Shown here: positions 2,981 to 46,503 of the stretch, in pieces
How the letters are laid out: every line of letters starts with the position of its first letter
How positions within the stretch are numbered: the stretch's first letter is position 1
Assembly (NCBI GenBank): GCA_965249025.1
Contig: OZ252215.1
Coordinates: 1,807,045-1,871,044 of the forward strand
Origin: Dehalococcoidia bacterium
Lineage (GTDB): Bacteria > Chloroflexota > Dehalococcoidia > Lucifugimonadales > CAYTFF01
Reading direction: 5' to 3'
Length of the DNA: 64,000 nucleotides
Translations under genes and position numbers: made by a program
The notes under the pieces: generated by a model
What the model was told of the DNA's origin: nothing
Database searches by the model: none
The model's input: the letters and a program-made list of their open reading frames with translations, nothing else

Positions 2981-3125
2981 CGTGGCGCTCATTTGGCGCA
3001 CTAGCCAAACGAGACCGTTGAGTGGCCTCTAGCGCTCGCCTGGTTGCTTCTTGCCACCCGCACGGAACTGGAGTACATTAGAGCCGTTAAGCTGAGAGCC
3101 AATTATCCCTTTGAGGAGGACCATT

Positions 3126-4484
3126 GTGGACACTAAAGGCGCAGCCGCTTTCGTTGCATCTCTGAACCTGGAGGCAACTCCGCAAAAGGTAGTGAAACAT
3201 GCCAAGCTCTGTGTGATGGATACCCTTGGTGTTATGCTGGGGGGCCTGGATACCGGGGCTGCGCGCATAGCTCGAGATGTGGTTTCTCTTTGGCCCAATC
3301 AGGATGGTGTTACCCTCTTCGGAAGCCAAAAGAGGGTTTCTCCACCCCAGGCTGCCTTCGCCAACTGTATTTCAGCCAGCGCCCTGGATATGGACGACGG
3401 CCACAACCTGGGTGGTCACCCTGGGGCCGTGATTGTGCCTGCTGTTCTGGCTGCTGCTGAAGCCACCGGAGCCTCAGGCAAGCTATTCCTGGAGGGCGTC
3501 GTCACCGGATACGAAATTGCCATTAGGGCAATGGAGACTATGGTGGCCCAGGAGTCTGGAGGCGCCGTTGCCTTTCCTGCTACAGGCGAGCCATACCACA
3601 GCACCGGCACTGGGGCCGCCTACGGAGCCGCAGCAGGTGCCGCTAAGGTGCTTGGCCTCGGAGTGGAAGGGATAGCCCAGGCCATCAACATAGCCTCCGC
3701 TCACACACCCAGCACTCGGCCGTACCAGATTCAGGTGCTGGGTCACAATGCCAAGGAGTGCATCGGCTGGGCTGGTATAACCGGTGTAGAGGCCGCCTAT
3801 TTGGCCAAACATGGCTTCACAGGCCCCAACTCCTTCTTCGATGATGAGCGTGCTAGAGGCACCAGCGTCGATAGCATTGGCTCTACCTTTGAGTTGGTGA
3901 ACAACTATTTCAAGGCCTATCCGTCGTGCCGGTATACCCACGCGGCCCTTGACGGCGCCCTGGTGCTAATAAAAGAGAAATCTCTCAACGGAGAAGGCAT
4001 AAGGCGCATAAGATTGTCCCTTAAGAAACATCATGCTGCTTTGAACAACCCTAGGCCAGCTACCATAGAGCAGGCCCAATACAGCTTTCCATTTGTTCTT
4101 GGGGCCGTCCTGGCCTACGGACACCATGGCCCGGACACCATGACCGACGAGAAGCTCAGGGACTCTGCCATTCTCAGGGAGGCCGAGAAGATTGTGCTGG
4201 AGCCCGATCCCTCTCTCGATAAGGATAGATGGCCTGCCCATGTCTCCATAGAAACCACAGATGGCAAGAACTATCAGCTTTATGTGCCTATACCTAAAGG
4301 AGACCCCAAGAACCTTTTGAGCGAGAGTGAGTTGACTTCGAAGTTCAACACCGTTTCGTTGCCTGCGTTGGGACAGGATGGCGCTAAGAAAGCTTTGGAC
4401 ACCATTAAGAGCCTGGAGTCCCTGGGAGATGTACGTGAGTTAACGGCTCTGCTGAACCAGGTTGTCCAGCAGCCGGTGGGCTAA
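3126..4484 (+). CDS. MmgE/PrpD family protein (2-methylcitrate dehydratase-like)
   Basis: N-terminal ..AKLCVMDTLGVMLGG.. and overall length are typical of MmgE/PrpD. GTG 3126 is preferred over the track start 3111 because GAGGAGG lies 6 nt upstream. Confidence 0.8.
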   Translation: MDTKGAAAFVASLNLEATPQKVVKHAKLCVMDTLGVMLGGLDTGAARIARDVVSLWPNQDGVTLFGSQKRVSPPQAAFANCISASALDMDDGHNLGGHPGAVIVPAVLAAAEATGASGKLFLEGVVTGYEIAIRAMETMVAQESGGAVAFPATGEPYHSTGTGAAYGAAAGAAKVLGLGVEGIAQAINIASAHTPSTRPYQIQVLGHNAKECIGWAGITGVEAAYLAKHGFTGPNSFFDDERARGTSVDSIGSTFELVNNYFKAYPSCRYTHAALDGALVLIKEKSLNGEGIRRIRLSLKKHHAALNNPRPATIEQAQYSFPFVLGAVLAYGHHGPDTMTDEKLRDSAILREAEKIVLEPDPSLDKDRWPAHVSIETTDGKNYQLYVPIPKGDPKNLLSESELTSKFNTVSLPALGQDGAKKALDTIKSLESLGDVRELTALLNQVVQQPVG

Positions 4485-4906
4485 CGCGAACCAACGTTTC
4501 GCTGAAGGATCTAAGTGGAAAACGGCTTCCTGGGCATCTGCTTGAGAGTGGCTTGTCTCATGCGTTCTGAACAGCTCTAAGAAGAAGTTGTAGAAGACGA
4601 GCGACGGCTACTCAATGAACTCAAGGACGGTAAGGCTAGGCCCCTGCATAACTAACAAACACCCCTTCGTTTTGAGCCTTGGGAGTTTTTCTGACAGCTA
4701 GTCCTAGTCGAAGAACTCATCTCGCGAATCGACGCTTCGGGCCGGATAAGAAGGGAAAATTCACGTTTCTAATCGTTAGTCAGGTGAGGGCTTAGCCTCA
4801 TAGTTCACTGCCTGTGCCTAAACAAGGTGATTGCAGTGCGAGACCTTGCCCTCTTCCTCCAACTCTTCTACAATCCACCTAACCTACTTGACCAAAGGGG
4901 TGTGTG

Positions 4907-5935
4907 ATGAAATTTGGCGCCTTTTTTCTCCTTCAATCGCCTGCAATGGAGTCTACAAAGGCAATATACGATAAAGCCTTGGATCAGATAGCCTATGCCG
5001 AGGAGTTAGGCTTCGACTCCGTGTGGCTGGCGGAGCACCACTTCTCCAACTACGGCTTCTCTCCTAATCCACTGCTTCTGGCCGTTAAGGCAGCCCAGGT
5101 AACTAAGAGGGTACGCATAGGCACCGCTGTATTGGTGTTGCCTCTGTGGCATCCAGTGCGCTTGGCCGAGGACATAGCCATGGTGGATGTCCTTACCGAA
5201 GGACGCCTGGAGGTAGGCATAGGCCGCGGCTATCAGATCCATGAGTTCGATGCCTTCGGGACCGACCTAAACGAGAGTCGTCTGATGTACGAGGAGTCAG
5301 TCGATATATTGCTGAATGCGTTCTCCTGTGAGAGCTTCTCCCATAGCGGCAGCTACTACAGAATTCCAGAGCTGGTTACTTATCCCAAAGTAGTCCAGAA
5401 GCCGCACCCTCCGATATGGGTCGCTGCCCAGAACCCCGATAGCGTCAAGAGCACGGCCGCCCACGGCTTCAACCTATTTACCTCTGGAGCCGGCCGTCCC
5501 TTTGAGATGCTTGCGACGGTTGGCCAGGCCTATCGGGAGGCGGCTGAGAAAGCTGGTCACAACGTTAACGACTTGGAGTTTTCGGTGCAAAACCAGATAT
5601 ATATTACCGAGACCGACGAAGAGGCTCTTGAGGCCGCGGAACACCATCGCTGGCAATACCGTATGGCCAATCACTTGCGCAGCGGAACCCTGAAGATAGA
5701 AAAGGGTGTGGCCTGTCCCGATTCTGTAAAGGAAGAGCCACCGTTAGGCGACTTCGTCAAAGGGCGTACCCTCTCAGGCACCCCCGACAAGGTCATTGCT
5801 CAGATAGAGCGCTACCGAGACGAGGTAGGCATAACCCAGCTCAACTGCTCCTTCTCCGTCGGTAGCCTGGAACACGACAAGGTCAAGAAGTCCATGCGCC
5901 TCTTCGCCGAACACGTCATGCCGCAGTTCAGGTAG
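4907..5935 (+). CDS. LLM-class flavin-dependent oxidoreductase, third type
   Basis: MKFGAFFLL..LGFDSVWLAEHHFSNYG.. luciferase-like signature. ATG 4907 lies 6 nt after AAAGGGG. Confidence 0.85.
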   Translation: MKFGAFFLLQSPAMESTKAIYDKALDQIAYAEELGFDSVWLAEHHFSNYGFSPNPLLLAVKAAQVTKRVRIGTAVLVLPLWHPVRLAEDIAMVDVLTEGRLEVGIGRGYQIHEFDAFGTDLNESRLMYEESVDILLNAFSCESFSHSGSYYRIPELVTYPKVVQKPHPPIWVAAQNPDSVKSTAAHGFNLFTSGAGRPFEMLATVGQAYREAAEKAGHNVNDLEFSVQNQIYITETDEEALEAAEHHRWQYRMANHLRSGTLKIEKGVACPDSVKEEPPLGDFVKGRTLSGTPDKVIAQIERYRDEVGITQLNCSFSVGSLEHDKVKKSMRLFAEHVMPQFR

Positions 5936-6060
5936 CTTAAGAATAGTGTGAAACTATGGCAAAGTTACTACTTATGGCTTTTGTTCCGAACTACGTTTCA
6001 AGTCGATAGCACAATTAATACGGTTTTGACATAGGTCAGGACGCGAGGCGTTATTAGGGT

Positions 6061-6255
6061 ATGGAATTCCAGAGAAATCAATCAGTTGATGAGCTGCTGC
6101 GAATTGTAGTCGGCGATACAAGCCACACCTGGCATTTGCGTATTGCCTCTTGGTTATTGCGGGTAATCTCAGCTGTGCCCAAGGAAATTCTATCCTTAGT
6201 ATCTGAGTATCTGCTGCCGCTAGCGGCTCCCCGGGTGGGATGGCACTCGCAATGA
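6061..6255 (+). CDS. Hypothetical small protein (64 aa), weak call
   Basis: ORF only. Overlaps the start of the next ORF by 16 nt and lies in a lower-GC segment. No recognisable motif. Confidence 0.2.
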   Translation: MEFQRNQSVDELLRIVVGDTSHTWHLRIASWLLRVISAVPKEILSLVSEYLLPLAAPRVGWHSQ

Positions 6256-7286
6256 CTCAACAGAATATATTGCCAATCCTTCGTGAGTGGGAGAGCCAAT
6301 TACATGAGCGTATCTCACTAAAGGAAACCTTGTCCAAGATTTCGGAGTACGAGCAGTTGTTGGCCAAGTCTCGAAGGCTTAGTTGGGGTGGGCCTCAGCT
6401 CAAGGTCGAGGCCTCAGCTTATGCTCAAGAGGCAGCCAACAAAGCGTGGACGTTGGTACATGACGCCGATAGGAGTAGGTGGTTGTGGGTGCCTCTTTGG
6501 ATTACAGCAGTGTCTGAACATGCCAGCCTTCAATTCTATGCCCAGAACTATGCTACTGCCCACGGTTTATTTCACCAAGCGGAGAAGTACTTACCAGATA
6601 TATCACAAGAGTTCCAGGGAATCAATGATAAAGAAGTGGGAGTACGTGGCTTTCACATCCCAACATTAGTAGCCTATTCTCATACGATGAAAGTGTCTAC
6701 AGGTGATTATCAAGATCAGTTGGATCATATCGCAGGCTCAACTTACCAACAAATCTCCAAGCTAATCCAATCAGGAGTCGGGCACGACAGCGGATTTGTG
6801 GATGTGTTAGCGCTATGGCTGCGTGATGCTGCCGAGAGACGATTGTTGAGGATACCAAATGATTTTGTAACTTTCAACCTAGAGCTTGCTTTTGCTGATA
6901 GGAGAGAGTTTATGACCACTTGCGGAGCCCTGATAGCCAACTATGCCTATGCTGAACTCTACTTATATAACAACACAGGAGACAAGCAATATTTTAACTT
7001 AGCTTCTATGAATTTTGAGCGAGCTATGGAAATGAATGTTGATGGCCTTTGCGGCACTAATGTGGGTTGGTATAGACCACAAGAGGGCATTCACCGAGCA
7101 TATGCCGCGAGTAGCTTCTACGATCCGATGGTTCAAAGGAGAGTAGGGCGTGTACTGGTATACAGGCTGGTGCTTGCAATGCTCGGAGGAGGGCTAGGAC
7201 TGGAAATGCGAGACGATAGTGCTGAACTGTTCGCCAGACTCTGGGAAAAGGAAAAGCACTGTGGATACAGCACGCAGCAATCTTGA
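6240..7286 (+). CDS. Hypothetical protein (348 aa), no recognisable family
   Basis: Long ORF in a visibly lower-GC segment between two metabolic genes. No motif I can assign. Confidence 0.5.
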   Translation: MALAMTQQNILPILREWESQLHERISLKETLSKISEYEQLLAKSRRLSWGGPQLKVEASAYAQEAANKAWTLVHDADRSRWLWVPLWITAVSEHASLQFYAQNYATAHGLFHQAEKYLPDISQEFQGINDKEVGVRGFHIPTLVAYSHTMKVSTGDYQDQLDHIAGSTYQQISKLIQSGVGHDSGFVDVLALWLRDAAERRLLRIPNDFVTFNLELAFADRREFMTTCGALIANYAYAELYLYNNTGDKQYFNLASMNFERAMEMNVDGLCGTNVGWYRPQEGIHRAYAASSFYDPMVQRRVGRVLVYRLVLAMLGGGLGLEMRDDSAELFARLWEKEKHCGYSTQQS

Positions 7287-38301: not shown

Positions 38302-40275
38302 ATGGAATGCCCAAATTGCCATAATGTCAATGAAGAAGGCAATAAGTTCTGCATCTCTTGCGGCACACCCTTGACGCCTCCTCAAGAGGAGTCCTCTTCA
38401 GAAGTTACGGGAGAAGTCACCGAGCCTGACGAAGTCGCCTCTATAGACTTGCAGACGTTGCACAGCGAGCTGCGTCGCCTCCGCGATGACCTCACTCAAA
38501 TGAACAGACGGATCGTCGCATTAGAGCGCAGTCAATCTGCATCTATTCCTGCCACACATCGCCTGGAAGGGCCTGCTCCTGGTGTTCAAGGAGGTATGCC
38601 TCCACCTGAAGGGGAGGACATCCTCGGTAGGATTAGGGAGTGGGACTGGGAGCGCATCCTAGGAGGCAACTGGCTTGCCAGAATAGGCGTCCTTGCCCTG
38701 ATTATAGGTGTCGCCTTCTTCCTCAAGCTGGCCTTTGACAACGACTGGATCGGTCCCACAGGACGGATCGTTCTAGGCATCGTCGGAGGTTTGGCGTTGC
38801 TGGGAGCCGGCCAGTTTTGGTGGAAGAAGTACCCTGCGTACTCCCAGGCCATCACGGGTGGTGGTATAGCCTTACTCTATCTCTCCTTCTTCGCCGCCTT
38901 TGCTATATACAGCCTGATAGATATTTATTCAGCAACGGCCTTGCTACTGATGGTCAGCGTGGCCTCGGCGGCTCTGTCCCTGCAACATGAATCAAAGAGC
39001 CTGGCCATTATCGGTATCCTCGGAGCCTTTAGCGCTCCCTTCATCCTGGGAGGTTTTGACCAGGAAGCTAGGGGAGTGGTACGGACAGGACAGAACATCC
39101 AGCTACTGGCATATATTATAGGTGTGGACCTAGGGGTGCTCGTTCTGTCCACCTTCCGCAACTGGCGATGGTTCACCCTACTGGCCCTCATTGGGTCTCT
39201 CGCGGCCTATGGCGGATGGTTCGCGGAGTTTGGGGACGATGCCAGCCTCCTTACCACTCAAGGGGGGCTTACCCTTATATTCCTGATATTCGTAGGTGCT
39301 ACCACCCTCTTCCATGTAGTTTGGCGTAGGGCTCCTCGTGATTTTGACCAGTTTCTTATGGTGCTCAACGCCGCCGCCTACTTCGGCATAAGCTACAGCC
39401 TCCTGTGGAACGACTTCCGCCCCTGGATGGGCGGATTCTCGCTGGCCATGTCTCTCTTTTATGGAGGCCTGGCTTACCTTGCCCTTAAGCGCAGCACAGA
39501 GAACGTCACCCTTAGCTTCTTTGCCTTGGGAATTGCTCTAGTTTTCCTCACCATAGCCGTCCCTGTCCAGTTAGGAGACAAGGCCTGGACCACTATTGCC
39601 TGGGCTGCAGAGGGAGCCATCCTGCTGTGGATATCCTTCCATCTGCGCATGCCTCGGATTCGCTACTTTGGCTACGCAATCTTTGTCATTACCGCCATAA
39701 GGCTGGTCTTCTTCGATACGCCGGTGGACGCAGCTACCTTCCGCTCCATAGTCAACGAGCGATTTCTGGCTTTCCTGGTCGGCATTGGGGTCATGTACTT
39801 GTCCGCTTACATGGTAAATCGCAATAAGGATGCCCTTATGGAATGGGAGAGGGGCAAGTCATCGGTCTATGGCATTTTCCTGGTAGCTGCCAACGTGCTT
39901 ACGCTATGGATTTTGACCGCGGAGGTCATAGCCTACTTCGACGCCCGAATAAGCGACTTGGGCCGCCCGGACAGGTTCGGCGTCGTCGGCAGGGGCCTAA
40001 GGAACGCCCAGAATCTGTCCCTGACAGCCCTCTGGGCGGTCTACGCCTTGATACTGATGGTCGTCGGTATTGCCAAGGGATCAAAGCCAGTACGCATAGC
40101 AGCTTTGGCCCTCCTGACTATTCCAATAGCCAAGGTTTTCGTTTACGATGTTTTTACGTTGGAGCGCATATACAGAGTAGTCGCCTTTATGGGATTAGGA
40201 GCGCTTCTCCTGATAGGAGGCTATCTATATCAGCGGTACAGCAGCAAAATAAAGGGGTTCATTCTTGCTAAGTAA
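38302..40275 (+). CDS. DUF2339-like polytopic membrane protein with N-terminal zinc ribbon and coiled coil
   Basis: AAGGAGG RBS. CPNCHNVNEEGNKFCISCG, then ..LRRLRDDLTQMNRRIVALE.., then about 15 or more TM segments. The family call is from memory of the architecture. Confidence 0.55.
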   Translation: MECPNCHNVNEEGNKFCISCGTPLTPPQEESSSEVTGEVTEPDEVASIDLQTLHSELRRLRDDLTQMNRRIVALERSQSASIPATHRLEGPAPGVQGGMPPPEGEDILGRIREWDWERILGGNWLARIGVLALIIGVAFFLKLAFDNDWIGPTGRIVLGIVGGLALLGAGQFWWKKYPAYSQAITGGGIALLYLSFFAAFAIYSLIDIYSATALLLMVSVASAALSLQHESKSLAIIGILGAFSAPFILGGFDQEARGVVRTGQNIQLLAYIIGVDLGVLVLSTFRNWRWFTLLALIGSLAAYGGWFAEFGDDASLLTTQGGLTLIFLIFVGATTLFHVVWRRAPRDFDQFLMVLNAAAYFGISYSLLWNDFRPWMGGFSLAMSLFYGGLAYLALKRSTENVTLSFFALGIALVFLTIAVPVQLGDKAWTTIAWAAEGAILLWISFHLRMPRIRYFGYAIFVITAIRLVFFDTPVDAATFRSIVNERFLAFLVGIGVMYLSAYMVNRNKDALMEWERGKSSVYGIFLVAANVLTLWILTAEVIAYFDARISDLGRPDRFGVVGRGLRNAQNLSLTALWAVYALILMVVGIAKGSKPVRIAALALLTIPIAKVFVYDVFTLERIYRVVAFMGLGALLLIGGYLYQRYSSKIKGFILAK

Positions 40276-41563
40276 ACGCTCAAGATTGTCGCTAGGGCTA
40301 GCCGCCGCCCTTCTCACTTCGCTCTTAGCACCATTGGGAGTATTGGCGGACTTCTCCTTGAAGGACTGGCATTACTACAAGCCCATCACTCTGTCTTCTA
40401 CCATCAACGTGGAGGAGTTTGTCGAGCTACTTCCTGACGTCGAGATATTCGCCGGCTCCTCGTCTACACTGACGGACCTGCGGATAATCGCTGACGACGG
40501 CACAGAGGTTCCCTACAAACTCGAAGTAAGCAGAAGCGAGCGTCAGAGCCAGACATTGTCTGCGCAGATGAGAGACCAGGGCTATATTGTGGGCCAGTAC
40601 ACCACCTTTATTGTCGACCTTGGCCGTAGGGGGATCCTCCACAACCAGATTGAAATAACAATCGATGATTCCGACTTCAGGCGAACCGCCACCGTCGAGA
40701 CCAGCGACGACGGCGATATGTGGGCCGAGGTAGTCGACAAGAAGATCTACGATTTCACCGTTGAGGAGCGAAGCTTTACTGCCCGTGACACACGAGTAGC
40801 ATACCCTGACAGCACTGCTCGTTTCCTGAGAGTGAAAATAGCCGATGAAGGCGAGGGGCCGCTGGAGGTAGCTGCCGCCTCCGTCTTCTTTGTCAGGGAG
40901 AGGCCTGCTAAAGAGGTCAGATGGCCCAGGCCAGATATGAGCGCACACGTAGACGCTGATAGGCAGGCGACTATTGTAGATCTGGACTTGGGTACCCCTG
41001 GTATTCCTACCTCTCGAATGGTTCTTGAGATTGGTGACGACAATTTCTATAGAGAAATTACCCTGGAGGAGAGCGACGACCGAGGGCGATGGACAACGGT
41101 GTCGAATAGCAACATCTTCAGTTACAACACCTCCAAGTTTGTGGGGAATAGGCTTGAGTTTAGCTACCGCGAGACCACTAGCCGAAATCTCCGCCTGGTT
41201 ATCCATGACCAGGACAGCCCGCCCCTGGATATCAAAGGCACAGACGTCTGGGGCTTTCAGCGAAGGCTCGTCTTTGAGGCAGACCCGTCTAAGACCTACA
41301 CGGTCTATTACGGCAATTCAGACGCCCGAAAACCGAATTACGATATAGAGCAGGTGTTTCCGTACTTGGAAACGGAAGACCTGCCTAGAGTCCAGGTAGG
41401 ACAGCAGTTCAGCAACTCGGATTTTGTGGAGAAGAAGCCGCCTGTGAGCGAGCGGTTTCCCTGGCTGTTACCCTTCGTTATAGGCATAGTTGCCCTATCG
41501 GTTGCCCTGATCCTCTTTGGGGTGATAAGGCAGGCCAGAAAGGTGCTCCCCCCACCTGCTTAG
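40265..41563 (+). CDS. DUF3999-like exported protein with C-terminal TM anchor
   Basis: Overlaps the upstream stop by 11 nt. Signal peptide, beta-rich body, C-terminal TM + RQARK. The DUF2339/DUF3999 gene pairing is recalled from other genomes. Confidence 0.5.
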   Translation: MLSKRSRLSLGLAAALLTSLLAPLGVLADFSLKDWHYYKPITLSSTINVEEFVELLPDVEIFAGSSSTLTDLRIIADDGTEVPYKLEVSRSERQSQTLSAQMRDQGYIVGQYTTFIVDLGRRGILHNQIEITIDDSDFRRTATVETSDDGDMWAEVVDKKIYDFTVEERSFTARDTRVAYPDSTARFLRVKIADEGEGPLEVAAASVFFVRERPAKEVRWPRPDMSAHVDADRQATIVDLDLGTPGIPTSRMVLEIGDDNFYREITLEESDDRGRWTTVSNSNIFSYNTSKFVGNRLEFSYRETTSRNLRLVIHDQDSPPLDIKGTDVWGFQRRLVFEADPSKTYTVYYGNSDARKPNYDIEQVFPYLETEDLPRVQVGQQFSNSDFVEKKPPVSERFPWLLPFVIGIVALSVALILFGVIRQARKVLPPPA

Positions 41564-41743: not shown

Positions 41744-42781
41744 ATGCCTCAAGGCTCCCTCGCTTCACAGCGATACCAAGTAGACGGCCTTTATGAGGCC
41801 ATCGAGTTCTATTACGAACGAGGCTGGACCGACGGCCTGCCTGTGATACCGCCGACGGAAGAATTGGTTCACGCCTCTTTAGAGGCCGCTGGTAGGCAGC
41901 CCTCCGATGTCCTGGGCGTAGAACCCGTGAAAGGACGGGTTATAACCGCGGAGAAGGCAGCTGTCAACGCCGTCATGGCTGGATGCAGGCCGGAGTACTT
42001 TCCCGTGGTGGTAACGGCGGTAGAGGCCATTTGCGAGGAGCCCTTTAACCTGCACGCCATAACAGTGAGTACCGCAGGAGCCGCTATCATGGTGTTGGTT
42101 AACGGGCCTGTAGCAAAAGAGCTAGGAATGAACTCTGGCATTAGCCTCTTCGGGCCGGGCAACAGGGCCAACGCCACCATTGGACGGGCCATGGGACTCA
42201 TTGTACGCAACGTGACCGGAGCCATACCTGGCGAGTTGGACAAGGCTACCCTTGGCCATCCTGGTAAATTCAGCTTATGCATCGCGGAGGCAGAAGACGT
42301 AAGCCCTTGGGACCCCCTGCACGTCGAGAGGGGGCTGTCGAAGGATGCCAGTGCTGTGACCGTCTTTGCCGCTCTAGCGCCTTGGCAGGTGCGTAACCAC
42401 GTCGGCAATACCCCTGAGACAGTCCTCATAAGCTTTGCGGACCTACTTAAAGATTGGGAACCCAGCCAGGGTGAAGTAGTAGTGGTCTTGTCTCCGCAAC
42501 ACTTAGGACACATCAAGGCTGCTGGGTGGAGCAAAGCACAGGTCAAGGAGTATCTGTGTAAAAAGGCCCAGCGCCCTATTAAAGACTTGGAGGAGGCTGG
42601 CAATCTGGGGGCAGACATTGGTAAGCTCCTTAGCGTTTGCCGTAGCTCAGACTCCATCACTGTGATAGTGGGGGGAGGGACTGCCGGAGGGTTTTCGTCT
42701 ATAATCGGCCTATGGGGTAAAGGGATTAACTCCCGTTCAGTTACAAAGGAGATAAGCTTTCCCAACGGCAAACAACCATGA
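41744..42781 (+). CDS. Conserved-looking hypothetical protein (345 aa), family not recognised
   Basis: AAAGGAGA RBS; motifs GWTDGLPVIPPT, NAVMAGC, GPGNRANATIGRA. Ends 61 nt upstream of the UGSC gene. Confidence 0.6.
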   Translation: MPQGSLASQRYQVDGLYEAIEFYYERGWTDGLPVIPPTEELVHASLEAAGRQPSDVLGVEPVKGRVITAEKAAVNAVMAGCRPEYFPVVVTAVEAICEEPFNLHAITVSTAGAAIMVLVNGPVAKELGMNSGISLFGPGNRANATIGRAMGLIVRNVTGAIPGELDKATLGHPGKFSLCIAEAEDVSPWDPLHVERGLSKDASAVTVFAALAPWQVRNHVGNTPETVLISFADLLKDWEPSQGEVVVVLSPQHLGHIKAAGWSKAQVKEYLCKKAQRPIKDLEEAGNLGADIGKLLSVCRSSDSITVIVGGGTAGGFSSIIGLWGKGINSRSVTKEISFPNGKQP

Positions 42782-42842
42782 ATGTTACACTTATAGCTCG
42801 ACTTAGCTAGGTATCGGAATCTGGATATTTCAGGAGGTGATT

Positions 42843-43394
42843 ATGGTCGTATCGACAAGTTCATTAGAGGTCCTCGACCCGACAGCCGAGGCGGCATCCG
42901 CTGAGGGCATAGTAGCTGACCGTCCTGGAGACCTCGATGGCAAGCGACTGGGGCTATTGGCCAATGGAAAGCGCAACTCGGAGGAGCTTCTAGAGGCAGT
43001 GTACGATCTGCTGTCAGAGCGATACCAGTTCTCCGGTGTGGTACGCCGAAACAAGGTCAACGCCTCCAGGCCGGCGCCCAAGGAGATGATCGAGGATCTG
43101 GTCAGAGAATGCGACCTGGTCGTCACTGCAACTGGCGACTGAGGGTCCTGCTCTTCGTGCAGTGTGCACGATGGCATAACCCTGGAGCAGAGAGGAGTCC
43201 CATCTGCAGTCATATGCACTGAGCCGTTCATAACCAGCGCCAAGGCTATGAACCGGCTTAGGGGCGTTCCAGACTATCCCTTCGCTGTTGTCGAGCATCC
43301 CATCGGCAGCCTCACGCCAGAGGGTCTTAGAGAAAGCGCCAAAACGGCTCTTCCGCAAGTCCTTCAACTCCTGTTGAACAAGGTGGAGAGGTAG
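42843..43394 (+). CDS. UGSC-family candidate selenoprotein (in-frame TGA 43140-43142 read as Sec)
   Basis: Track ORFs 42837-43142 and 43164-43394 share one frame. Read-through gives ..VVTATGD-U-GSCSSCSVHDGITLEQRGVPSAVICTEPF.. AGGAGGTG RBS before ATG 42843; hairpin 13 nt after the TGA. Confidence 0.65.
43140..43142 (+). other. In-frame UGA, candidate selenocysteine codon
   Basis: TGA sits directly before GGG TCC TGC (G-S-C). The coding signal continues in the same frame for 84 more codons. Confidence 0.6.
43155..43171 (+). promoter_or_regulatory. Candidate bacterial SECIS hairpin
   Basis: 7-bp stem TCGTGCA / TGCACGA with apical loop GUG. The loop starts 22 nt after the U of UGA. Confidence 0.45.
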
Positions 43395-43446
43395 GCGGAT
43401 ATCTCTAGCCTGGCCATCAAACGGGTTTGATGGTATGACATAGCTG

Positions 43447-43476
43447 AGGCCCTCCATGACGTTTCATGGAGGGCCT
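43447..43476. terminator. Bidirectional intrinsic terminator between convergent genes
   Basis: 13-bp perfect stem AGGCCCTCCATGA / TCATGGAGGGCCT with loop CGTT, followed by TATACTTT. Confidence 0.7.
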
Positions 43477-43537
43477 TATACTTTAAAGCATCGAGGAAAA
43501 TTTACGGGTCTCCTGGATAATTCTGGTCACTATACCT

Positions 43538-43753
43538 CTAAACTAGACTGTTCACCTCTACGATGTTTTCTTTGCTTTGGGGTACACCTGCAGCCTCATG
43601 TGACTTGATCACTGCCTCGGCGTTTGGGGCCTCGGATAGGCAATAGGCCTGTCCTTCCGTACCCATGAAGATGTTGAGACCCTTGGCATCAAACTGGTTT
43701 TGCTCCCCTGCTTGCATTTTGGCCCGCATCTCGTCTATAGCCTCTGGCGGCAT
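43538..43753 (-). CDS. Small DUF4242-like protein (71 aa from first ATG)
   Basis: C-terminal ..AYCLSEAPNAEAVIKSHEAAGVPQSKENIVEV.. resembles that small alpha/beta family (from memory). The N-terminus is uncertain; see rejected notes. Confidence 0.5.
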   Translation of the reverse strand: MPPEAIDEMRAKMQAGEQNQFDAKGLNIFMGTEGQAYCLSEAPNAEAVIKSHEAAGVPQSKENIVEVNSLV

Positions 43754-45504: not shown

Positions 45505-46503
45505 ATGAAGTTTGGCTTTCCCATTCCCACCTGCCGGGAAGCTCGAGATAACCTTACCGGAATTGTCAACCCCAAGGACATCATCAAGATTTCTCAGGAT
45601 TGTGAGCGCCTGGGCATCGATTCCATATGGGGCAACGACTTTATCAACCCACCCAAGTCTACCCTGGAGAAATTCAACCCCCCACCTAGCTGGTACGAGA
45701 TAATTACCAGCTTTGCGGCGGTCGCTATGATGACGGAACGCATCAAGCTGGGCTTGGGACTCATTGTCATGCCCGTTAGAGAACCAGTTATCCTGGCCAA
45801 GCAAATAATAACATTAGACCATTTCAGCAATGGGCGTGTACTGTTGGGGCTTGGGTTGGGTGGCGACAGAGAGGTGTTCGTTTCTATCAAACCCAAAGAA
45901 GCCAAGGCCTATCGCGGCAGAATGCTGGACGAGGGACTGGAGTCGGTCAATAGGCTACTGACTCAGACGAGGGCTAGCTTCGATGGCGAATACTATGCCT
46001 TCACAGATGTCTCCTTGTATCCTCGACCCGTCCAGAACCCCATACCTATCTATATCTCCGGCCATAGCGAGTCTACGCCTCAGAGAATAGCCAAGTACGC
46101 CCATGGGTGGCTGGTGTCCTATCCTAGCCTGGAGAGCTTCAAGGAGTTATGGCATGGAGTAGAGGAAGCCATGGAGAAGGAGGGACGGAGCATGTCGGAG
46201 CTGGACATAACGATAAGCTGGGGCATGAGGCTGGCCAAATCACGGAAAGAGGCCATTGAGCAGTTCAATAACAGCGTCCAAGGTGGCCTGCCACGGCCGG
46301 AGGAGTGGTACCGAAGCCCATTTCCCCCTGAGAACAACCTGTTAGGCACGCCCGCCGAAGTGGCGGAGTACATCATCGGCTTTGAGATGGCGGGAGCCAC
46401 CCACTGCGTCCCGATTCATGTTGCAGCCGATACTCTACCTGAGCTAGAGGAGCAGATGCACATCTATGCGGAAGAGGTCATCCCAATAGTCAAGTCCGCG
46501 TGA
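45505..46503 (+). CDS. LLM-class flavin/F420-dependent oxidoreductase, type B paralog (solo)
   Basis: 332 aa; MKFGFPIP..; LDHFSNGRVLLGLGLGG. Alignable with 1967-2980 and 12733-13683. Confidence 0.85.
   Translation: MKFGFPIPTCREARDNLTGIVNPKDIIKISQDCERLGIDSIWGNDFINPPKSTLEKFNPPPSWYEIITSFAAVAMMTERIKLGLGLIVMPVREPVILAKQIITLDHFSNGRVLLGLGLGGDREVFVSIKPKEAKAYRGRMLDEGLESVNRLLTQTRASFDGEYYAFTDVSLYPRPVQNPIPIYISGHSESTPQRIAKYAHGWLVSYPSLESFKELWHGVEEAMEKEGRSMSELDITISWGMRLAKSRKEAIEQFNNSVQGGLPRPEEWYRSPFPPENNLLGTPAEVAEYIIGFEMAGATHCVPIHVAADTLPELEEQMHIYAEEVIPIVKSA

Follow-up and report, generated by a model that had tools for sequence, protein, structure and literature searches.

A UGSC-family selenoprotein gene interrupted by an in-frame UGA, and its near-constant partner gene, in a Dehalococcoidia genome: a candidate two-component oxidoreductase

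The stretch of DNA considered here, hereafter the window, comprises 64,000 nucleotides (nt) from a Dehalococcoidia bacterium (assembly GCA_965249025.1, contig OZ252215.1, positions 1,807,045 to 1,871,044 of the forward strand), and the element in question is a pair of genes at positions 41744-43394, made up of a selenoprotein gene of the UGSC family and a larger gene directly upstream of it. The upstream gene (41744..42781, + strand, stop codon TGA) appears in the list of open reading frames (ORFs) with a product of 345 amino acids, here termed the partner, which contains the sequences GWTDGLPVIPPT and GPGNRANATIGRA. Downstream of it the same list gives two short ORFs on the + strand, 42837-43142 (101 amino acids, GTG start) and 43164-43394 (76 amino acids, GTG start), which lie in a common frame, as the initial annotation of the locus had claimed, and which are separated only by TGA 43140-43142 and a further 21 nt, that is, seven sense codons. 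Translation through the TGA gives ..CDLVVTATGD*GSCSSCSVHDGITLEQRGVPSAVICTEPFITSAK.., exactly the read-through peptide quoted in that annotation, which may also be written ..VTATGD-U-GSCSSCSVHDGITLEQRGVPSAVICTEPF.. with selenocysteine (Sec, U) at the TGA, the Sec context being D-U-G-S-C-S-S-C. In other words, the two ORFs are one gene, broken only by TGA 43140-43142. Its start is likely ATG 42843, which makes the residue at the TGA Sec100; a Shine-Dalgarno-like AGGAGG (42832..42837, + strand), read from the sequence and of putative function, stands 5 nt before this ATG and is overlapped by the GTG at 42837. The gene then runs from 42843 to 43394 on the + strand, with 183 codons including Sec100 and the stop codon TAG at 43392-43394, and the intergenic gap of 61 nt reported earlier is correct when measured to ATG 42843.

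The closer homologues are 53-64% identical to the window protein across both halves of the gene, which shows that the gene is not ended at the TGA; rather than homologues ending at this point, amino-acid conservation runs on downstream of it. The alignment column of the TGA (43140..43142, + strand; the first residue of U-G-S-C-S-S-C) holds either TGA or a codon for cysteine (Cys), the alternation by which the initial annotation had proposed that a Sec site could be recognised. A genome scan gave 13 loci, 12 of them full-length, and a metagenome set seeded by the partner gene gave 80 loci. In the genome set the column is TGA in 9 of the 12 full-length loci, which come from Chloroflexota, Dehalococcoidia, SAR202 and one 'Acidobacteria' metagenome-assembled genome (MAG), and TGC in 3 of the 12, namely an alphaproteobacterial MAG, a Nonomuraea and a Nocardioidaceae MAG; in the metagenome set it is TGA in all 72 of the real UGSC genes. 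TGA is found in every one of the 82 distinct Sec-type homologous loci examined, and Cys (as CGSC) in 32 homologues from the protein database. The closest protein match, entry P0001 from a Tara Oceans assembly (55% identity), carries tryptophan (W) at the Sec column, and its DNA (locus L001, 128-658) has TGA there, so the database entry was translated with the wrong code. Similarly, the Sec-form UGSC gene of Paracoccus (pFER4, locus L097, 7387-7956) was deposited as two 'hypothetical proteins'. Within the window TGA is the stop codon of 9 of the 36 long ORFs, including the partner gene just upstream; it is therefore an ordinary stop in this DNA, and a reassigned genetic code is excluded.

Family membership was scored with the 185-amino-acid read-through product, Cys being put in place of Sec. 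The product reaches 159.3 bits against a cut-off of 125 with the NCBIfam model NF041046, 'UGSC family (seleno)protein' (profile positions 1-146 of 147), and 203.4 bits against a cut-off of 25 with the Pfam model PF24696 (profile positions 1-171 of 172), such that both curated models bear out the assignment to the UGSC family made in the initial annotation. Moreover, since PF24696 aligns to residues 11-180, a single domain extends across the TGA. Across the family alignments the columns D, C/U, G, S and C show little or no variation. The family itself is already known, and the window gene is an ordinary member of it. The UGSC-containing protein was described from the Sargasso Sea and Global Ocean Sampling (GOS) selenoproteome surveys, the 2008 GOS survey placing it among the major selenoprotein families with 255 Sec against 21 Cys sequences, and reviews of 2022 and 2026 continue to count it with those whose function is largely uncharacterised. 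In environmental DNA the Sec form predominates, both in the GOS counts and in the 72 metagenome genes considered here.

A bacterial selenocysteine insertion sequence (SECIS) element is expected, under the bSECISearch model as set out in a recent review (PMC13188914), to have an apical loop of 3-9 nt on a stem of 4-16 bp, a G among the first two loop nucleotides (most often GG or GU), a distance of 16-37 nt from UGA to loop, and a minimum free energy of -7.5 kcal/mol or lower. The core hairpin of the window, UCGUGCA-GUG-UGCACGA (43155..43171, + strand; stem UCGUGCA/UGCACGA of 7 bp, apical loop GUG, extended stem 43142-43183), falls within all four of these published limits, its loop beginning 19 nt past the UGA. 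By prediction the core folds at -8.2 kcal/mol (z -3.3) and the 46-nt element that begins at the UGA at -22.8 kcal/mol (z -3.8), and in neither case was any of 200 shuffled sequences as stable. The likeness to the bacterial consensus lies in the 3-nt loop opening with G then U, the 7-bp upper stem, the 19-nt spacing and the stability of the core; one difference is that no Rfam family matches the window hairpin.

Comparison across homologues points in the same direction. In a set of 11 close Sec-type genes the four codons at 43155-43166 have a synonymous-codon identity of 1.00 and the two codons that follow them one of 0.82, against about 0.35 elsewhere. The hairpin occurs in identical register in 82 of 82 distinct Sec-type loci, with 96.9% of the cells of their ungapped alignment paired; changes on both sides of a pair occupy 39 cells, as compared with 10.3 +/- 2.3 in shuffled alignments (0 of 500), and the alignment has a covariation score of 0.233, shuffles one of 0.072 and slid controls, without exception, one of 0.05 or less. 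In locus L017 both arms of the stem have changed with the peptide SCSVHD retained (TCA TGT AGT GTA CAT GAC), and in L048 both arms have changed with G..V retained through GGG..GTC; the peptide being kept while both arms change, the constraint must act on the RNA. None of the three Cys-form loci examined has a hairpin in this register. The 7-bp hairpin that the initial annotation had placed at a SECIS-compatible distance is hence a real one, within the published limits and with covariation to accompany it, and, as read from these sequences, UGA 43140 is decoded as selenocysteine. By analogy with known systems, SelB carrying Sec-tRNA would bind the hairpin 43155-43171, inside the coding sequence and 12 nt 3' of the UGA. 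A scan of the window for further ORFs split by TGA gave no second candidate with a redox motif.

As the SECIS stem lies wholly within conserved codons, codon choice there is fixed and two amino-acid positions are coupled. Specifically, within 43158-43169 the first base of codon Sec+6 pairs with the second base of codon Sec+9. Across the 82 Sec forms the residues at these two positions are Cys and His in 46 loci, Gly and Leu in 24, Trp and His in 8, Ser and Leu in 3, and Gly and His in one; in the Cys forms, which are without the SECIS, Cys at +6 is accompanied by Val (10), His (5) or Phe (4). The RNA structure seems, then, to dictate part of the peptide.

The partner protein, which the initial annotation could not assign, proves to belong to an orphan family. 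It has no consistent match in Pfam or NCBIfam even at E values up to 10, and no relative in the PDB by sequence-profile search. An AlphaFold2 model (predicted local distance difference test, pLDDT, 80.8; predicted template modelling score, pTM, 0.84) gave, on Foldseek comparison with the PDB, nothing with E below 0.01, the best match being a Toblerone-fold barbiturase at a template modelling (TM) score of 0.2. The family is nonetheless large, a profile search finding 6,828 clusters at 50% identity, and at least 7,900 clusters at 90% identity having been scored. Its invariant features are GWTDGLPxxPPT, MAGC (containing Cys81), His104, RxNAxxGR and KxxxC(Cys179)xxE, and a D-K-x-T-x-G-H-x-G-K loop is conserved as well. 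Among relatives of the partner with a named source, the closest are Chloroflexota, some of them labelled SAR202, so that the window is probably derived from a SAR202-like Chloroflexota genome. Several relatives of about 710-740 amino acids (P0160, P0164, P0165, P0167, P0174 and P0182) contain two or three stretches matching the 345-amino-acid domain in one polypeptide, P0160 giving no Pfam match; these multi-domain proteins suggest a tandem duplication, and the single-domain partner perhaps works as a dimer.

What becomes evident from the wider set of loci is that the two genes are rarely found apart. The partner lies immediately upstream of the UGSC gene in 13 of 13 genome loci, the matches at the contig ends of L002 and L004 being partial, and a UGSC gene is present in 69 of the 71 partner-seeded metagenome loci with at least 400 nt downstream of the partner, usually adjacent on the downstream side and in a few cases upstream. 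Clustering of ORFs across the loci of the pair showed no third broadly conserved gene. Moreover, the two domains occur as single polypeptides. The metagenome contig L103 has two paralogous single ORFs, one of them at 4677-6281, in which a UGSC domain with in-frame TGA is followed by a partner domain; P0168 has the reverse order, partner then Sec-form UGSC, its gene call stopping exactly at ..AIGD, before the Sec; and P0222 and P0273 each unite a UGSC and a partner domain in a full-length fusion. These natural fusions settle the functional link between UGSC protein and partner, and the functional pair envisaged in the initial annotation is accordingly seen as co-occurrence in both directions and, in some cases, as one protein. 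An apparent fusion in L012 was rejected as an artefact of an open, GC-rich frame. In P0196 and P0205 an AhpC/TSA (redoxin) CxxC domain, with the motif CATC in P0196, stands N-terminal to the partner domain, and a thioredoxin-fold CxxC module can apparently replace or supplement the UGSC module. On L103 (1-11278) the two fusions have as neighbours genes encoding a fumarate-reductase-like flavoprotein, a ferredoxin, two SBP_bac_5 binding proteins, an isochorismatase-like hydrolase, a 2-hydroxyacid dehydrogenase and an amidohydrolase. The 2008 GOS paper mentions a 'UGSC/Unknown_1' fusion, which may involve the same partner. The papers searched gave no account of the near-obligate pairing, of the fusions in both orders or of the size of the partner family, nor of three points described below, namely the trxB/trxA operons, the prediction of a flavodoxin-like fold and the weak resemblance to selenoprotein B.

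In several unrelated lineages the pair is flanked by genes of the thioredoxin (Trx) system, trxB and/or trxA. The order is trxB-trxA-partner-UGSC in Arthrobacter sp. ERGS1:01 and in the Nocardioidaceae MAG (L014), trxA-partner-UGSC in Nonomuraea (L013), partner-UGSC-trxB in Roseovarius sp. THAF8 and in a metagenome locus (L051), and trxB-binding protein-SDR-partner-UGSC in Variovorax sp. SRS16, SDR denoting a short-chain dehydrogenase/reductase. In Paracoccus ferrooxidans pFER4 the Sec-form UGSC gene precedes the partner, and selB lies 3.3 kb away; an ORF of 454 amino acids beside this selB was considered as SelA and rejected, as it is a DctP-type binding protein. On haloarchaeal plasmids of Natrinema and Halalkalicoccus the pair sits inside catabolic islands, and in the records from cultured hosts the genes around it code chiefly for organic-acid transporters, CoA transferases, SDRs and amidohydrolases. 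Two further gene families, phosphosulfolactate synthase and isocitrate lyase/PEP mutase, recur near the pair, in two hosts each (L099 4674-5462 in Arthrobacter; L096 4886-5353 and 11843-12781 in Natrinema; L101 5269-6222 in Acidovorax), which may hint at the class of substrate or may be coincidence.

With regard to fold, AlphaFold2 models a Cys-form homologue (pLDDT 91.5) as a parallel, five-stranded beta/alpha/beta sandwich of flavodoxin-like type, the helix after strand 3 having the Sec/Cys position at its N-terminus. Its PDB neighbours by Foldseek are of the flavodoxin-like, SIS, PTS-IIB and lumazine-synthase folds, with TM scores up to about 0.5, and none of the 50 PDB matches listed is described as a thioredoxin. 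The 2008 GOS paper described a family with a UxxC motif and 'likely a Trx-like fold'; on the present model that expectation is not supported, the predicted fold being flavodoxin-like. The UGSC protein does share with the Trx-fold UxxC/CxxU selenoproteins (Trx-, Prx-, Grx-, DsbA- and SelW-like) a Sec/Cys motif spaced by two residues at a helix N-terminus and a Cys homologue at the Sec position, and among relatives of the partner there are some with an AhpC/TSA CxxC domain in the place of UGSC, whereas the predicted topology, the five-stranded parallel sandwich, sets it apart from them.

A second comparison is with selenoprotein B of the glycine, sarcosine, betaine and D-proline reductases, for which the models TIGR01917, TIGR01918, NF040794, NF040795 and TIGR04483 were used. 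Besides the window protein, 13 of 32 further UGSC members match the GrdB model over the Sec region (best E 1.7e-5), and some UGSC members also match the models of sarcosine, betaine and D-proline reductase (GrdF, GrdH, PrdB). These sub-threshold NCBIfam matches are the sole source of the link to GrdB/PrdB; in a protein search with the UGSC profile the best 120 of 799 matches were all UGSC members, with no GrdB or PrdB among them. The likenesses to selenoprotein B (GrdB/GrdF/GrdH/PrdB) are the Sec-x-x-Cys motif, a gene that adjoins that of a second, larger subunit and, in several lineages, genes of the thioredoxin system in the operon. A U-x-x-C-x-x-C motif has been reported for GrdB, and it is present in the UGSCSSC of the window protein, as in part of the family, the third Cys being specific to a subfamily. 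In contrast, the protein has about 180 amino acids, as against model lengths of 238 for PrdB and 431 for GrdB; neither GrdA nor GrdC accompanies it; and the cultured hosts found for the family include Paracoccus, Arthrobacter and haloarchaea rather than amino-acid-fermenting clostridia. Paracoccus, Arthrobacter and the haloarchaea are generally regarded as aerobic heterotrophs.

Given a partner that is near-constant, the two genes most likely constitute a two-part redox enzyme, and it is probable, in our judgement, that 41744-43394 is a two-gene unit for a two-component thiol/selenol oxidoreductase. In such an enzyme the U-x-x-C centre would cycle between a selenol/thiol and a selenenylsulfide state, supplying the nucleophile and the electrons, and the partner, with its two invariant cysteines, would be the substrate-binding or catalytic subunit that binds or activates the substrate. 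From the gene order at related loci we infer that the oxidised U-x-x-C would be re-reduced by thioredoxin and thioredoxin reductase. Likewise, from members at related loci, the Sec domain may be a distant relative of selenoprotein B; if there is such kinship, the reaction may therefore be one in which a small organic acid or amine is reductively cleaved. A more ambitious proposal, which we advance with rather less confidence than doubt, is that UGSC and partner form an uncharacterised and very widespread two-component selenoenzyme. It would be a minimal relative of the Stickland selenoprotein-B reductases, driven by thioredoxin and with a catalytic subunit of new fold, and heterotrophs of marine, soil and hypersaline settings (including SAR202-like Chloroflexota, Paracoccus and haloarchaea) would employ it to reduce a small organic substrate.

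A number of observations sit uneasily with these proposals. As regards Sec insertion, the 64-kb window contains no tRNA and no Rfam match, and no sel gene was seen among the 20 large ORFs scanned in it. As regards the electron donor, thioredoxin-system genes directly flank the pair in only some 7 of roughly 100 loci, and the window itself has neither a thioredoxin nor a trxB gene. As regards selenoprotein B, the window protein scores far below the cut-offs of the models (22.3 against 602 bits for TIGR01917, 16.4 against 65.45 for TIGR01918 and 15.6 against 300 for TIGR04483), most Sec forms have Gly, Ser or Trp where UxxCxxC has its third Cys, and the partner resembles nothing in Pfam or NCBIfam, models of the pyruvoyl proproteins GrdE/PrdA included insofar as these libraries contain them. 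Finally, about 10 of the 32 Cys-form UGSC proteins have a C-terminal NifU-like domain, which would fit a different role.

It is on this last feature that an alternative account draws, in which the pair serves the trafficking or maturation of sulfur, selenium or iron-sulfur clusters, the UxxC motif and the cysteines of the partner carrying a persulfide, a perselenide or a cluster. The proximity of the Paracoccus pair to genes for a cysteine desulfurase, TusA and DsrE is in keeping with such a role. The NifU fusion, however, was seen only in Cys forms, the named sources of which are actinobacterial, the Paracoccus context is a single case, and most contexts in cultured hosts are catabolic islands and trxB/trxA, such that we regard trafficking as unlikely. 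Less likely again is the default of the selenoproteome literature, namely that the UGSC protein acts by itself, as a thioredoxin-like antioxidant or disulfide reductase, the upstream gene being a mere neighbour. The UxxC motif with the 'likely' Trx-like fold of the GOS paper, and a Sec placed at a helix N-terminus as in CxxC redox proteins, are what commend it; but a free-standing protein would hardly show near-exceptionless co-occurrence in both directions and fusions in both orders, and the model is flavodoxin-like, with no thioredoxin among the 50 PDB matches listed.

A further account takes TGA 43140 for a true stop, the locus then being a pseudogene, a gene split in two or the result of a sequencing error; alternatively, TGA would be globally reassigned to Trp or Gly. 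Gene callers do split or truncate the gene at this point, in Paracoccus and on the P0168 contig, and the P0001 entry does have W at the codon. Against a stop, nevertheless, are the recurrence of TGA at one column in 82 loci of many lineages, the purifying selection on both halves of the gene, the covarying hairpin downstream and the Cys at this column in other homologues; against reassignment is the use of TGA to end 9 of 36 long ORFs of the window, the gene directly upstream being one of them. Either version is barely credible on this evidence. A two-component oxidoreductase remains the account of the locus that we prefer.

Beyond the pair itself, a perfect 15-bp hairpin (43445..43478, no strand assigned) lies about 50 nt 3' of the stop codon of the selenoprotein gene, between that gene and a convergent SCO4226-like ORF (43538-43753, - strand). 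It is predicted to fold at -28.1 kcal/mol (z -6.9), with none of 200 shuffles equally stable, and is probably a bidirectional transcription terminator that closes the two-gene unit. The scan for consensus terminators made no call at 43445-43478 because the hairpin is not followed by a U-run; the promoter and terminator scans of the window gave counts at chance level. In the window the pair is without associated neighbours, being situated between a pair of DUF2339/DUF3999 membrane proteins and small unrelated genes. Directly upstream are the genes for a zinc-ribbon/DUF2339 membrane protein (38302-40275) and a DUF3999 protein (40265-41563), which overlap by 11 nt and look like a separate two-gene unit. 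Elsewhere the window, of 53.4% GC, holds four paralogous luciferase-like (LLM) flavin monooxygenase genes (925-1953, 1961-2980, 4904-5935 and 45505-46503), a gene for an MmgE/PrpD protein (3111-4484) and an ORF of 348 amino acids (6240-7286) that has no Pfam match at E up to 1e-5 and is unrelated to the 345-amino-acid partner.

The main practical gain of the analysis is a corrected annotation, in which one Sec-containing gene takes the place of two fragments, and the same mis-annotation is present in public records, among them those of Paracoccus pFER4 and the Tara Oceans entry. UGSC is among the most abundant of the aquatic selenoprotein families. The Sec form is present in the culturable Paracoccus versutus/ferrooxidans, and the Cys form in Arthrobacter, Roseovarius, Variovorax and haloarchaea; with culturable hosts carrying the pair, the question of its function is one that can be tested at the bench. 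The near-obligate partner, from an unnamed family of about 6,800 clusters, offers a handle on a selenoprotein family of unassigned function, and the fusions, together with the trxB/trxA operons, point to a thioredoxin-dependent, two-subunit enzyme.

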